DNA of 5,436 bases from a virus (taxonomy: Duplodnaviria; Heunggongvirae; Uroviricota; Caudoviricetes). Below, piece after piece: positions 246-5,436 of this stretch. The stretch is taken from the IMG/VR virus record IMGVR_UViG_2663762648_000012; one strand, 5' to 3'. The position numbers and the translations under genes were made by a program. How positions within the stretch are numbered: position 1 is the stretch's first letter; every line of letters starts with the position of its first letter. Under the pieces are notes generated by a model that saw nothing but the letters and a program-made list of their open reading frames with translations, was not told where the DNA came from and ran no database searches.

Positions 246-3200
246 ATGGCAGTAAAGATTTCAGGTGTACTGAAAGACGGCACAGGAAAACCGGTACAGA
301 ACTGCACAATCCAGCTGAAAGCAAAACGTAACAGCACCACGGTGGTGGTGAACACGCTGGCCTCAGAAAATCCGGATGAAGCCGGGCGTTACAGCATGGA
401 CGTTGAGTACGGTCAGTACAGCGTTATTCTGTTGGTGGAAGGATTCCCGCCGTCACATGCCGGGACCATCACCGTGTATGAAGATTCCCGACCCGGTACG
501 CTGAATGATTTTCTCGGTGCCATGACGGAGGATGATGCCCGTCCGGAGGCACTGCGCCGTTTTGAGCTGATGGTGGAAGAGGTGGCGCGTAACGCGTCCG
601 CGGTGGCACAGAACACGGCAGCCGCGAAGAAATCAGCCAGCGATGCCAGCACATCAGCCCGTGAGGCGGCAACCCATGCGACTGATGCTGCAGATTCAGC
701 ACGTGCAGCCAGCACGTCAGCCGGACAGGCCGCTTCGTCGGCTCAGTCAGCGTCTTCCAGCGCAGGAACGGCATCAACAAAGGCCACTGAAGCCTCAAAA
801 AGTGCTGCCGCTGCAGAGTCCTCAAAAAGCGCGGCGGCTACCAGTGCCGGTGCGGCGAAAACGTTAGAAACGAATGCGGCAGCGTCACAACAATCAGCAG
901 CCACTTCTGCATCCACCGCGACCACGAAAGCGTCAGAAGCTGCCACCTCAGCCCGGGATGCGTCGGCTTCAAAAGAGGCGGCAAAATCATCAGAAACGAA
1001 CGCATCATCAAGCGCCAGTAGCGCAGCTTCCTCGGCGACGGCGGCTGCAAATTCTGCGAAGGCGGCCAAAACGTCCGAGACGAACGCCAGGTCTTCTGAA
1101 ACGGCAGCGGGACAGAGTGCCTCAGCTGCGGCAGGCTCAAAAACAGCGGCTGCGTCGTCTGCCAGCGCCGCGTCAACAAGTGCCGGGCAGGCCTCAGCCA
1201 GTGCCACCGCCGCCGGAAAATCGGCAGAAAGCGCCGCATCATCCGCTTCAACAGCCACAACGAAGGCTGGCGAAGCCACTGAACAGGCCAGCGCAGCAGC
1301 GAGGTCTGCTTCCGCAGCGAAGACATCCGAAACGAACGCGAAAGCGTCGGAAACCAGCGCAGAATCCTCAAAAACGGCTGCCGCATCGTCCGCCAGTTCG
1401 GCGGCGTCATCGGCATCATCGGCGTCTGCTTCAAAAGATGAGGCGACCAGACAGGCGTCAGCAGCGAGGGGCAGCGCCACGACGGCATCCACGAAGGCGA
1501 CAGAGGCTGCTGGTAGTGCGACGGCAGCAGCTCAGAGCAAAAGTACGGCGGAATCTGCAGCAACGCGCGCTGAGACAGCGGCAAAACGGGCAGAGGATAT
1601 TGCATCCGCCGTGGCGCTTGAGGATGCGAGCACGACGAAAAAGGGGATAGTACAGCTCAGTAGTGCGACTAACAGCACTTCCGAGTCACTGGCGGCAACA
1701 CCAAAAGCCGTTAAGGCCGCGTATGACCTGGCTAACGGGAAATACACCGCACAGGATGCAACGACAGCACAGAAAGGGATAATCCAGCTAAGCAGCGCGA
1801 CCAACAGCACGTCTGAAACGCTGGCGGCAACGCCAAAGGCAGTAAAAGCAGCCAATGACAATGCTGAGAAACGTCTGCAGAAAGATCAGAACGGTGCGGA
1901 TATCCCTGGCAAAGACACCTTTACGAAAAATATTGGTGCCTGCCGTGCCTTCGGTGGGTCAGTAAGCACAACAACAGGAAACTGGACGACTGCACAGTTT
2001 ATCGAGTGGCTGGATTCTCAGGGAGCATTTAACCATCCATACTGGATGTGCAAGGGTTCCTGGTCTTATGGCAATAATAAAATCATTACTGATACTGGCT
2101 GCGGTAATATTCATCTCGCCGGAGCTGTCATTGAAGTAATGGGGATAAAGTCAGCGATGACGATCCGCATTACCACTCCGACCACATCCAGCGGTGGCGG
2201 AACAACCAACGCCCAGTTTACCTATATTAATCACGGAACAGATTATTCACCTGGCTGGCGAAGGGACTATAACTCCAGAAATAAGCCAACGGCATCAGAG
2301 ATCGGGGCGCTACCGTCAGGTGGAACAGCAGTATCATCAGTTAATCTGGCTTCAAAAGGTCGGGTAGCCGCGCTGACAGACAATACGCAGGGGGCAGCAG
2401 GTCTTGAGTTATACGAGGTGTATAACAACGGATATCCAACAGCGTATGGAAATATCATTCACCTGAAAGGGATGACAGCCGTTGGCGAAGGTGAGTTACT
2501 CATCGGCTGGAGTGGTACAAGCGGTGCTCATGCTCCGGCATTTATTCGTTCACGACGGGATACGACCGACGCAAACTGGTCGCCGTGGGCGCAGCTTTAC
2601 ACCTCGGCTCATCCTCCTGCAGAGTTTTATCCAGTCGGTGCACCAATCCCGTGGCCATCAGATACCGTTCCGTCTGGCTATGCCCTGATGCAGGGGCAGG
2701 CTTTTGACAAATCTGCTTACCCGAAACTCGCAGCCGCTTATCCGTCAGGCGTGATCCCTGATATGCGTGGCTGGACGATTAAGGGCAAACCTGCCAGTGG
2801 TCGTGCCGTATTGTCTCAGGAACAGGATGGCATTAAATCGCACACCCACAGCGCCAGCGCATCCAGTACGGATTTGGGGACGAAAACCACATCGTCGTTT
2901 GATTACGGCACTAAATCCACGAATAACACCGGGGCGCATACGCACAGTCTGAGCGGCTCTACAAGTTCAGCTGGGGCCCACCAACATAGTCAGACTGGGC
3001 CCAGAACGAATAGCGGGAGTCAACCTACTGGAATGTTTCCGGCAGGGAGTACTCAAGTTAGCGGGACTAATCAGGTTGGTATCAGTGGCTCATTAACCAG
3101 TGGCACCTCCCAATGGGTAGGTAAATCATCTTCAGAAGGAAACCATACACACTCACTGTCCGGCACAGCAGCATCTGCGGGTGCACACGCGCATACTGTC

Positions 3201-3329
3201 GGTATTGGTGCTCATACGCACTCTGTTGCGATTGGTTCACATGGACACACCATCACCGTTAACGCTGCTGGTAACGCGGAAAACACCGTCAAAAACATCG
3301 CATTTAACTATATTGTGAGGCTCGCATAA
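246..3329 (+). CDS. stf: Side tail fibre protein (lambda Stf family), about 1027 aa; N-terminal lambda-like region, Ala/Ser-rich repeat shaft, duplicated [15 protein letters not shown] motif, a lower-GC central domain, and a His-rich HxH C-terminal tip
   Basis: Single long ORF from the six-frame track (240-3329). I place the start at ATG 246 ([26 protein letters not shown]..., matching the lambda Stf N-terminus) rather than the in-frame GTG at 240; a G-rich Shine-Dalgarno (gtgggg) lies just upstream. The C-terminus ...[31 protein letters not shown] matches the lambda Stf C-terminus. Stop TAA at 3327-3329. Confidence 0.95.
590..1640. repeat. Ala/Ser/Thr-rich low-complexity region of imperfect repeats inside stf (recurring AAKTSETNA-type units)
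   Basis: The translated sequence is almost entirely A/S/T/K/E with repeated motifs ([48 protein letters not shown]). The DNA is GC-rich with related units such as gcgaaaacgttagaaacgaatgcg, gccaaaacgtccgagacgaacgcc and gcgaagacatccgaaacgaacgcg. This also explains the long spurious antisense ORFs here. Confidence 0.6.
1641..1721 (+). repeat. Copy 1 of a duplicated 27-codon motif ([27 protein letters not shown]) within stf
   Basis: Direct repeat with copy 2 at 1773-1853, 132 bp (44 codons) apart and in frame. The two copies are identical at 25 of 27 residues but differ at many synonymous third positions. Confidence 0.8.
1773..1853 (+). repeat. Copy 2 of the duplicated 27-codon motif ([27 protein letters not shown]) within stf
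   Basis: See copy 1: same amino-acid motif, with divergent synonymous sites. Confidence 0.8.
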
Positions 3330-3910
3330 TGGCATTCAGAATGAGTGAACAAGCACGGACCATAAAAATTTATAACCTGCTGGCCGGAACTAATGAATTT
3401 ATTGGTGAAGGTGACGCATATATTCCGCCTCATACAGGTCTGCCTGCAAACAGTACCGATATTGCACCGCCAGATATTCCGGCTGGTTTCGTGGCTGTTT
3501 TCAACAGTGATGAGTCATCGTGGCATCTCGTTGAAGATCATCGGGGTAAAACGGTTTATGACGTGGCTTCCGGCGACGCGTTATTTATTTCTGAACTCGG
3601 CTCATTACCGGAAAATGTCACCTGGTTATCCCCGGAAGGGGAGTTTCAGAAGTGGAACGGCACAGCCTGGGTGAAGGATACGGAAGCAGAAAAACTGTTC
3701 CGGATCCGGGAGGCGGAAGAAACAAAAAACAGCCTGATGCAGGTAGCCAGTGAGCATATAGCGCCGCTTCAGGATGCTGTGGATCTGGAGATCGCAACGG
3801 AGAAAGAAACCTTGTTGCTGGAAGCTTGGAAAAAGTATCGGGTGTTGCTGAACCGTGTTGATACATCAACTGCACCGGATATTGAATGGCCAGTAGCACC
3901 TATAGGGTAA
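3329..3910 (+). CDS. tfa: Tail fibre assembly protein (lambda Tfa family chaperone), 193 aa
   Basis: ORF 3329-3910 ([54 protein letters not shown]...[10 protein letters not shown]) matches lambda Tfa as recalled, near-identical over the N-terminal part. Its ATG overlaps the stf stop in a TAATG arrangement (3327-3331), consistent with translational coupling, and gtgagg (3315-3320) provides a Shine-Dalgarno about 8 nt upstream. Stop TAA at 3908-3910. Confidence 0.93.
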
Positions 3911-3993
3911 ATTCGTAATGATTACCTAAATACGTTATTCTTTTGTTAAAAAAGTGATTTTGCTATAGGTAGGGAGTATGTTCTTGGATTAAG

Positions 3994-4027
3994 AATAAAA
4001 AATCGCCATGAAAGAGCTTCATGGCGA
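3994..4027 (-). terminator. Candidate rho-independent terminator oriented for leftward (minus-strand) transcription
   Basis: Perfect 10-bp inverted repeat (4003-4012 tcgccatgaa, pairing with 4018-4027 ttcatggcga) with a 5-nt loop. On the minus strand the stem is followed by TTTTTTATT (complement of 3994-4002). On the plus strand no T-run follows, so it is not a good terminator for tfa. Confidence 0.4.
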
Positions 4028-4169
4028 ATACATAAACGTACAAAATGTGATGAAAGTAGAGTGGCGTAAGCCACTATATTAAGATATAACAATAGCGAAG
4101 AAAAGTAAATAACATTTTATGGACGTTTAATTTTTAATTATAAAAACTAGAGTGCCCGATATTGTTTAT

Positions 4170-4178
4170 CTTGCTTTA
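4170..4178. repeat. Left copy of the 9-bp target-site duplication (CTTGCTTTA) generated by IS1 insertion
   Basis: The 9 bp immediately left of the IS1 left end (4170-4178) are identical to the 9 bp immediately right of the IS1 right end (4947-4955). A 9-bp duplication is the characteristic IS1 size. Confidence 0.9.
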
Positions 4179-4201
4179 GGTGATGCTGCCAACTTACTGA
4201 T
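4179..4201. repeat. IS1 left terminal inverted repeat (IRL, about 23 bp)
   Basis: ggtgatgctgccaacttactgat; the reverse complement of the right end (ggtaatgactccaacttattgat) matches at 18 of 23 positions, as expected for IS1's imperfect inverted repeats. Confidence 0.85.
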
Positions 4202-4233
4202 TTAGTGTATGATGGTGTTTTTGAGGTTCTCCA

Positions 4234-4509
4234 GTGGCTTCTGTTTCTATCAGCTGTCCCTCCTGTTCAGCTACTGACGGGGTGGTGCGTAACGGCAAAA
4301 GCACCGCCGGACATCAGCGCTATCTCTGCTCTCACTGCCGTAAAACATGGCAACTGCAGTTCACTTACACCGCTTCTCAACCCGGTACGCACCAGAAAAT
4401 CATTGATATGGCCATGAATGGCGTTGGATGCCGGGCAACTGCACGCATTATGGGCGTTGGCCTCAACACGATTTTACGTCACTTAAAAAACTCAGGCCGC
4501 AGTCGGTAA
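4234..4509 (+). CDS. insA: IS1 InsA (transposition inhibitor / DNA-binding protein), 91 aa
   Basis: ORF starting at GTG 4234 ([51 protein letters not shown]...LKNSGRSR) matches IS1 InsA as recalled, including the Cys-rich zinc-finger-like N-terminus. A Shine-Dalgarno-like tgagg sits 7 nt upstream. Confidence 0.93.
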
Positions 4510-4931
4510 CCTCGCGCATACAGCCGGGCAGTGACGTCATCGTCTGCGCGGAAATGGACGAACAGTGGGGCTATGTCGGGGCTAAATCGCGCCAGCGCTG
4601 GCTGTTTTACGCGTATGACAGTCTCCGGAAGACGGTTGTTGCGCACGTATTCGGTGAACGCACTATGGCGACGCTGGGGCGTCTTATGAGCCTGCTGTCA
4701 CCCTTTGACGTGGTGATATGGATGACGGATGGCTGGCCGCTGTATGAATCCCGCCTGAAGGGAAAGCTGCACGTAATCAGCAAGCGATATACGCAGCGAA
4801 TTGAGCGGCATAACCTGAATCTGAGGCAGCACCTGGCACGGCTGGGACGGAAGTCGCTGTCGTTCTCAAAATCGGTGGAGCTGCATGACAAAGTCATCGG
4901 GCATTATCTGAACATAAAACACTATCAATAA
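4428..4931 (+). CDS. insB: IS1 InsB reading frame (catalytic part of the InsAB' transposase produced by a -1 frameshift from insA)
   Basis: ORF in the -1 frame relative to insA, overlapping its 3' end ([53 protein letters not shown]...HYLNIKHYQ), matching IS1 InsB as recalled. The coordinates are those of the ORF as computed from the first in-frame ATG; the functional product is the InsA-B' fusion. Confidence 0.9.
4485..4491 (+). other. Programmed -1 ribosomal frameshift site (A6C slippery motif) joining insA to insB
   Basis: The heptamer a-aaa-aac lies in the insA frame (LKN codons) just upstream of the insA stop, within the insA/insB overlap. This is the documented IS1 recoding site that yields InsAB' transposase. 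Confidence 0.8.
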
Positions 4932-4946
4932 GTTGGAGTCATTACC
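4924..4946. repeat. IS1 right terminal inverted repeat (IRR, about 23 bp)
   Basis: atcaataagttggagtcattacc; this is the inverted partner of IRL at 4179-4201. Confidence 0.85.
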
Positions 4947-4955
4947 CTTGCTTTA
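4947..4955. repeat. Right copy of the 9-bp target-site duplication (CTTGCTTTA)
   Basis: Identical to 4170-4178 and immediately abutting the IS1 right end. Confidence 0.9.
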
Positions 4956-5436
4956 AAATAATGTACTCAAACCAAATTTTTGAGCTAAAAGCTCAAATAA
5001 TATAAATGCAATAATAATGTTTAATAAGACAATTAGCTTGCTTTGTATTTTCATTTCGGAATACTGTTAAGTAACTTTGATGACCCTAACAATAGATCGG
5101 AATTTTCTTAGAGTCAATGGTCACTGTTTTTGCTTGCAAAGCAAATGTTTTGGTGGTTATAAGTCGTCTTAATATAGTCACGCATGCAACTTGTTCCATG
5201 CGGAGATTAAAGATTGGAATATAACGCGAAGATGGAATTAAATTACATTTGCAATAATTAATTTATTATTACTCAATAATTACCGATATTATTATTGTAA
5301 ATTAATCATTAGAGTGCAAAAAGAAATGTAACGGCAAAATAAGAGGACGATAGCTGAGAAAAAAGCGTGCTTTCCCAATCTGGGGCAAATCACGTCTGAA
5401 TGACACCTGAAAACAGGTGGTAGCCTCAAGAAGGCT

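Follow-up and report, generated by a model that had tools for sequence, protein, structure and literature searches.

A simple insertion of an IS1A-type element into lambdoid prophage accessory DNA, beside an unannotated YncL-like open reading frame

How did a complete IS1 come to lie behind the tail-fibre genes of a lambdoid prophage, and was anything split when it arrived? The question is raised by a stretch of viral DNA of 5,436 nucleotides (here called the window), for which an initial annotation, made from the letters alone, had proposed an intact and relatively recent IS1 insertion with a perfect 9-bp duplication in an AT-rich spacer. Taken together, the evidence supports, with a probability of roughly 0.93, that an IS1A-type copy entered accessory DNA of the prophage by ordinary simple insertion, and we infer that the 3′ end of transcripts from a neighbouring YncL-like open reading frame (ORF) is affected.

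The element, delimited by reading the sequence and by script, occupies positions 4179 to 4946 on the plus strand (768 bp) and ends in imperfect 23-bp inverted repeats starting with GGTRATG, as is typical of the IS1 family. The left repeat, IRL (GGTGATGCTGCCAACTTACTGAT; 4179 to 4201, plus strand), and the right repeat, IRR (reading inward GGTAATGACTCCAACTTATTGAT; 4924 to 4946, minus strand), are identical at 18 of 23 positions, and a promoter-like site for insA, CTGCCA-16-TATGAT (4186 to 4213, plus strand), lies partly within IRL. In the ORF list, insA (4234 to 4509, plus strand) starts with GTG and encodes 91 aa with the exact sequence of INSA1_ECOLX; its product matches the NCBIfam models for IS1 transposase and for the Zn-binding domain. 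The insB′ frame, a 167-aa ORF (4428 to 4931, plus strand; 143.8 bits against NF033558) whose product is an exact match to 'IS1 ORF [Shigella sonnei]', supplies, on translation, the C-terminal portion of InsAB′ (4234 to 4931). The insA (0) and insB′ (−1) frames are joined through an A6C programmed −1 frameshift motif at 4485 to 4491 (plus strand), inside TTAAAAAACTC, which begins at 4483. With a −1 shift at this motif, the product is a 232-aa InsAB′ with the exact sequence of the catalogued 'IS1-like element IS1A family transposase', and NF033558, the NCBIfam IS1 transposase model, matches both halves, InsA and InsB′. The DNA of the element is 99.9% identical (1 mismatch) to common E. coli IS1A copies, annotated by PGAP as IS1A family. 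Compared with IS1A/IS1 of E. coli K-12 and Shigella sonnei, the length, inverted repeats, insA, A6C motif, insB′, InsAB′ and 9-bp duplication are the same, whereas the location is new and a single base differs, a T at 4228 (plus strand; IS position 50, G50T) where every compared IS1 copy has G. This private base is non-coding, lying in the insA leader 6 nt upstream of the GTG, and may reflect either a real mutation or an error in sequencing; among 5426 complete E. coli genomes no 100%-identical IS1 copy was found. Judged by its sequence, the element has every feature of an IS1 of the IS1A type and looks capable of transposing again. The full length, intact insA and insB and A6C site reported in the initial annotation were thus recovered by script and by exact protein matches.

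Whether this copy arrived by direct transposition was assessed from its flanks. The 9-mer CTTGCTTTA occurs exactly twice in the whole window, at 4170 to 4178 and at 4947 to 4955 (located by script, no strand assigned), and each copy abuts one IS terminus, as in the direct 9-bp target duplications of the IS1 family; the junctions of the filled site read GTTTATCTTGCTTTAGGTGATGCTGCC and CATTACCCTTGCTTTAAAATAATG. Since unrelated 9-mers also repeat by chance elsewhere within the AT-rich 3911 to 5436, a 9-bp repeat on its own would be weak evidence; the chance of a 9-mer repeat abutting both IS termini is about 4^-9. Removal of the IS together with one repeat copy, joining 3911 to 4178 with 4956 to 5436, gave a reconstructed empty site of 749 bp, which was found in one contiguous piece at 99.3 to 99.6% identity in complete E. 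coli genomes among the matches listed. At least 80% of the 749 bp was covered in 280 complete E. coli genomes and part of it in 1329, and the sequence was also contiguous in the phages mEp332, PhiR70_1 and ev099 (four phage records representing three phages). In the prophage locus L002 (strain 2009C-3133), window 3144 to 4178 corresponds to 7234 to 8268 and window 4947 to 5436 to 8260 to 8749, and the two flanks have in common a single copy of the 9-mer at 8260 to 8268. The suggestion that joining 4178 to 4956 would restore the pre-insertion sequence was therefore borne out in IS-free relatives, as was direct transposition: in the relatives examined the flanks are directly adjacent, with one 9-mer and nothing deleted or inverted, and a simple insertion is accordingly favoured over an IS1-mediated rearrangement. 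InsAB′ makes 9-bp staggered cuts in its target. An IS1A-type copy would thus have transposed into prophage accessory DNA equivalent to the b region, where InsAB′ would have cut CTTGCTTTA in a staggered fashion, the 9 bp then being duplicated on repair.

Three other accounts of the structure were weighed against simple insertion. IS1 can generate deletions without direct repeats (Turlan & Chandler 1995, as cited in PMC9330008), and the element might mark such a rearrangement, be it an adjacent deletion, an inversion or an unresolved cointegrate. Rearrangement does occur in the same module: in about 86 genomes, including L005 and L006, an IS1 stands right after the equivalent of window position 5436 with no 9-mer common to its flanks, and 550 bp that ev099 and L002 possess are missing there. 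The initial annotation had named an IS1 at this position without the duplication in related genomes as a sign of rearrangement, and this arrangement was seen at the right edge of the module, where it has no bearing on the copy in the window. At the window's own site, the identical 9-mer on both flanks, the adjacency of these flanks around one copy in IS-free genomes and phages, and the lack of any loss or inversion leave rearrangement barely credible. It is also very improbable that the IS1 was put there by the assembly, as a collapsed repeat wrongly placed in a short contig. The odd ends of the window, with positions 1 to 85 copying 838 to 922 and the last base falling where the IS1 of L005 and L006 begins, resemble contig breaks at repeats; a misassembly, however, would not yield a 9-bp target duplication abutting both exact IS termini, and the copy bears its private base at 4228, which is unseen in the other compared IS1 copies. 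A composite transposon-like structure is a doubtful but less strained proposal. Here the IS1 would be the left arm, and a second, direct IS1 just past 5436 would bracket a 481-bp segment with the YncL-like gene; the window ends at the very junction at which an equally oriented IS1 is found in about 86 E. coli genomes. After the equivalent of 5436, L002, ev099 and FCI1 read TGGAATATTCTTC, the L002-type continuation being TGGAATATTC, and the IS1-type continuation reads GGTGATGCTGCC. Against a composite structure, the window covers nothing beyond 5436, and in its left part the module is nearer to the L002 type, which is without that IS1 (3 differences versus 6). Even if the structure were composite, the copy at 4179 to 4946 would remain a simple insertion, flanked by a duplication of its own.

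The site of this simple insertion lies 268 bp downstream of tfa, the tail-fibre assembly gene (3329 to 3910; Pfam Caudo_TAP), which follows the side tail fibre gene stf (ATG at 246, end at 3329; Pfam phage_tail_N, Phage_fiber_2 and Collar). From 3911 to 5436 (no strand assigned) runs a conserved AT-rich cargo module lying between tfa and the end of the prophage, 749 bp long without the IS, with about 30% GC (flanks of the IS approximately 0.29 to 0.33) versus about 0.5 in the tail genes. A preference of IS1 for AT-rich targets has been described (Zerbib 1985, as cited in PMC9330008), and both the GC content of the flanks and the other IS insertions in the module agree with it. Gene order in relatives is gpJ, lom, stf, tfa and then the 749-bp module, after which ev099 and PhiR70_1 carry an AraC-family regulator, IS remnants and int/attP; in other relatives the prophage end beyond the module adjoins zinT, bio/ybhB or ydfJ. 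Module positions 1 to 480 are kept at an identity of at least 98%, even between prophages with different integration sites, and the last 85 nt of the module (window 5352 to 5436) recur alone in many lambdoid prophages, ending other cargo loci that include NleG-type DUF1076 genes and a diguanylate cyclase. A spread sample puts the share of complete E. coli genomes with the module at roughly 15%. In an Rfam search of the whole window, no family was found in the AT-rich module, and the sole match (IS009) fell inside tfa. The AT-rich setting behind stf and tfa was thus correctly described at the outset, but the site after tfa is an exchangeable cargo (moron) position and not a neutral spacer. At the other end of the window, positions 1 to 85 are an exact copy of 838 to 922, and a second stf-like repeat links them to the final 33 nt of lom.

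IS elements have repeatedly targeted the module. In FCI1, an IS1 with a clean 9-bp duplication lies at the equivalent of window 3980 to 3988; it covers the same 1526-bp span and was considered as the same insertion, which is ruled out by its isoform (91% identical), its opposite orientation and its site, 190 bp to the left of that in the window. The IS1 of the L005 and L006 type shares the AT-rich module but sits at its right edge, lacks a duplication and adjoins a 550-bp deletion, and LA3 carries the IS5-family element ISKpn26 at about module position 384. The end of the window (5436) coincides with the start of the IS1 in L005 and L006. IS1 has long been known in the genomes of temperate phages such as P1 and SfIV. 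The copies in P1, SfIV, GER2, phi456 and RCS47 are the same element (98.4 to 99.6% identity), likewise in non-essential temperate-phage regions, but in other host phages and at other sites, none of them in this module.

At the site studied here, by contrast with the wide distribution of the element, no IS1 was found in any of the 5426 complete E. coli genomes when the full 1526-bp region was used as query; the best full-coverage matches were in three pieces, with the IS1 elsewhere (at the right edge of the module). The exact left junction, searched as a 33-mer or a 27-mer, was not found in the viral, species-representative genome and JGI metagenome collections, and neither was a degenerate pattern of the right flank with any IS1 end within 20 nt, a pattern that does match the window itself. 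The insertion is strain-specific, seen in one sequence alone, and is therefore probably recent. The relative recency put forward initially is in this sense upheld, as a deduction from rarity and intactness and not as a dated event. With the site empty in every relative found, the insertion provides a clean strain marker. IS1 is carried by 4971 of the 5426 complete E. coli genomes, in a median of 11 places, and insertion of an IS1 with a 9-bp duplication into AT-rich, non-essential prophage DNA is a textbook event, already known in kind; the insertion itself is of little importance.

The initial annotation had expected the empty site to reveal which locus was split, and none was: the IS1 breaks no ORF or other coding sequence, and lies between the stop codon of a small ORF and its likely terminator. 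This ORF, on the minus strand at 4953 to 5054 (coding 5054 to 4956), is intact and unannotated and would encode a 33-aa YncL-like small membrane protein, MKIQSKLIVLLNIIIAFILFELLAQKFGLSTLF. Its TAA stop, at 4955 to 4953, falls within the right-hand copy of the 9-mer, which on the minus strand reads TAAAGCAAG; because the duplication includes this TAA, the ORF retains its own stop. Likeness to YncL is apparent from the size (about 30 aa), the single hydrophobic helix and a gap-free similarity. The NCBIfam model NF000537 (YncL) matched the ORF with an E value of 1.3e-5 over profile positions 1 to 28 of 30, at 25 bits, which is below the curated family cut-off of 35 bits, and a precomputed match to the Pfam family PF28073 (YncL) was flagged 'weak'. 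Alignment with K-12 YncL was gap-free over 28 residues, 11 of them identical, with a BLOSUM62 local score of 60 that was reached by none of 5000 shuffles (mean, 20.3; SD, 4.1; maximum, 45). The ORF resembles K-12 YncL (b4598, 31 aa) in size, in its single hydrophobic helix and in matching the YncL models; it differs in being prophage-borne, below the NCBIfam cut-off and unannotated. Across the 15 copies compared, the predicted protein did not vary, and both substitutions seen were synonymous (2/2), a conservation that is weak evidence given the very low divergence and the choice of 6 of the 15 copies by protein identity. Scans of the ORF against Pfam and PHROGs were uninformative, K-12 YncL itself being unmatched in the Pfam set scanned, and a tblastn search of phages with the 33-aa query, which is short and of low complexity, gave no match.

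Around this ORF, the sequence suggests a small transcription unit. By consensus match, no sigma-70-like site in the window surpasses TTGACT-17-TATTGT (5089 to 5117, minus strand), whose end lies 34 nt upstream of the YncL-like ATG. Downstream of the ORF, an intrinsic-terminator-like hairpin of 11 bp followed by TTTTTTATTC (4003 to 4027, minus strand) is the first strong terminator, and the minus-strand RNA from 4178 to 3990 folds with a z score of −5.6. Before the insertion, the unit would have consisted of promoter, 33-aa ORF, a 3′ untranslated region (UTR) of about 150 nt and terminator, the terminator lying about 150 nt downstream of the ORF, whereas the hairpin of K-12 yncL follows about 20 nt after the stop. 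The IS1 now sits between the YncL-like stop codon and this putative 3′ UTR, and the terminator at 4027 to 4003 is 777 bp further from the ORF than in the uninterrupted sequence. IS1 insertions are classically polar. Transcripts from the YncL-like ORF promoter would read into the IS1, antisense to insB, and no longer have their native 3′ end. The phenotypic effect of the insertion is probably small.

It could be argued that the insertion was selected for altering expression of the cargo, through a hybrid promoter formed by IRR and its flank and directed antisense across the YncL-like ORF or a promoter formed by IRL and its flank for the structured 3′ RNA. IS1 is documented to form fusion promoters (Prentki 1986, as cited in PMC9330008), and outward hybrid candidates, which the initial annotation had suggested looking for, are present at both ends: on the minus strand TTGGCA (4192 to 4187)-16-GATAAA, spanning 4192 to 4165, and on the plus strand TTGGAG (4933 to 4938) followed by -18-AATAAT (4933 to 4962) or by -15-TAAAAT. 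Among all window positions, their scores of 7.2 to 7.6 rank near the 99.9th percentile, and overproduction of YncL depolarises the membrane (PMC12542507), so a changed dosage could matter. The candidates are, however, weak consensus matches; nearby native AT-rich sites score higher (8.5 to 11.4), and a stricter promoter scan yielded no hybrid site at either end. As the insertion is found in one sequence, with no recurrence at the site in the collections searched, selection for altered expression appears unlikely. In K-12, YncL is a small membrane protein induced by stress, and its overproduction also condenses the nucleoid (PMC12542507). From the sequence one might go further and read the module as a real, unannotated moron for a prophage-borne, YncL-like membrane-depolarising protein whose mRNA has a long, structured 3′ UTR, in which the IS1 would detach the 3′ UTR and terminator, add an antisense hybrid promoter and measurably alter dosage; we consider this speculative and rather improbable.

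The end of the ORF was also considered as an IS hot spot, since four metagenome contigs stop 0 to 2 nt from its last codon. This was rejected: an ascertainment effect is likelier, because the exact-protein look-up records gene calls truncated at contig edges, and no IS1 junctions near the ORF end were found in the pattern scans of the viral, species-representative and JGI metagenome collections. A mildly new by-product of the analysis is the unannotated, prophage-borne YncL-like ORF itself, which has been missed by annotation pipelines and could be of modest interest to those who catalogue small membrane proteins and prophage morons. No annotation of it was found in any RefSeq or phage record inspected; in a collection of 15 billion proteins its exact sequence is present, unnamed, in a cluster of two members.

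The AT-rich cargo module that follows the tail-fibre assembly gene tfa contains, on the minus strand, an unannotated ORF for a 33-amino-acid YncL-like small membrane protein (positions 4953-5054). The protein was the same in every relative compared, and extrapolation from a spread sample put carriage of the ORF at some 800 of the 5426 complete E. coli genomes, although PGAP annotation gave no feature at the locus. The gene and its promoter are enclosed by 25-nt inverted repeat arms (4060-4084 and 5167-5191; 76% complementary, with a perfect core of 12 nt, TCTTAATATAGT), which lie about 305 nt apart when the IS1 is removed. Four metagenome contigs from different samples (L014, L015, L018, and L019) ended 0 to 2 nt from the last codon of the ORF, at the equivalent of 4953-4958. 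This clustering probably reflects ascertainment bias, as the contigs were retrieved by exact protein look-up; a less likely cause is a hot spot for IS insertion, or a structural breakpoint, at that place.

Strongly structured RNA was predicted on the minus strand at 3990-4178, upstream of the terminator at 4027-4003 (z = -5.6; computed minimum free energy, -42 kcal/mol). The structure includes a second hairpin at 4061-4074 (GTGGCTTACGCCAC). Given the promoter-like sites identified on the same strand by sequence match (4144-4114 and 4109-4081), this RNA could be an independent sRNA instead of a 3' untranslated region.

At its right end the module terminates in an 85-nt element with the hairpin CACCTGAAAACAGGTG (5352-5436), for which an Rfam search of the window returned no match. 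The element was found alone, at 93 to 100% identity, ending unrelated cargo loci of many lambdoid prophages, including those of NleG/DUF1076 effectors and of a diguanylate cyclase. It looks like a conserved boundary of the exchangeable cargo slot. Other mobile elements were present within the same module of relatives, namely, a frameshifted ISKpn26 of the IS5 family in strain LA3 (3385-4600 of that locus) and, in FCI1 (8079-8846 of that locus), an IS1 isoform of 91% identity that points the other way and is flanked by its own 9-bp duplication.

The right end of the window, position 5436, is also the exact base after which approximately 86 E. coli genomes (e.g., the relatives L005 and L006) have an IS1 with the same orientation and a 550-bp adjacent deletion. 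A second IS1 may lie beyond 5436 in the source, bracketing a 481-bp segment with the YncL-like gene. The left end is unusual over positions 1-181. Its first 85 nt repeat 838-922, inside the side tail fibre gene stf, without a mismatch, and 87-148 match 820-881 at 95% identity; at position 149 the sequence switches to the final 33 nt of lom (…GVGYKF-stop), followed by the lom terminator. This stretch is either a tandem duplication running from the 3' part of lom through the 5' part of stf or an artefact of contig assembly at a repeat.

Within the coding part of tfa, the Rfam family IS009 gave a full-length plus-strand match (3672-3870; 218 bits; E = 2.8e-54). IS009 denotes a candidate sRNA predicted in E. 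coli and is not an insertion sequence; the match does no more than overlap the conserved codons of tfa.

No IS1 identical to that of the window was found among the 5426 genomes. Its position 50 (4228 in the window) carries a private G-to-T change, present in none of the copies compared. The substitution lies in the leader of insA, after the GAGG Shine-Dalgarno sequence and before the GTG start codon.
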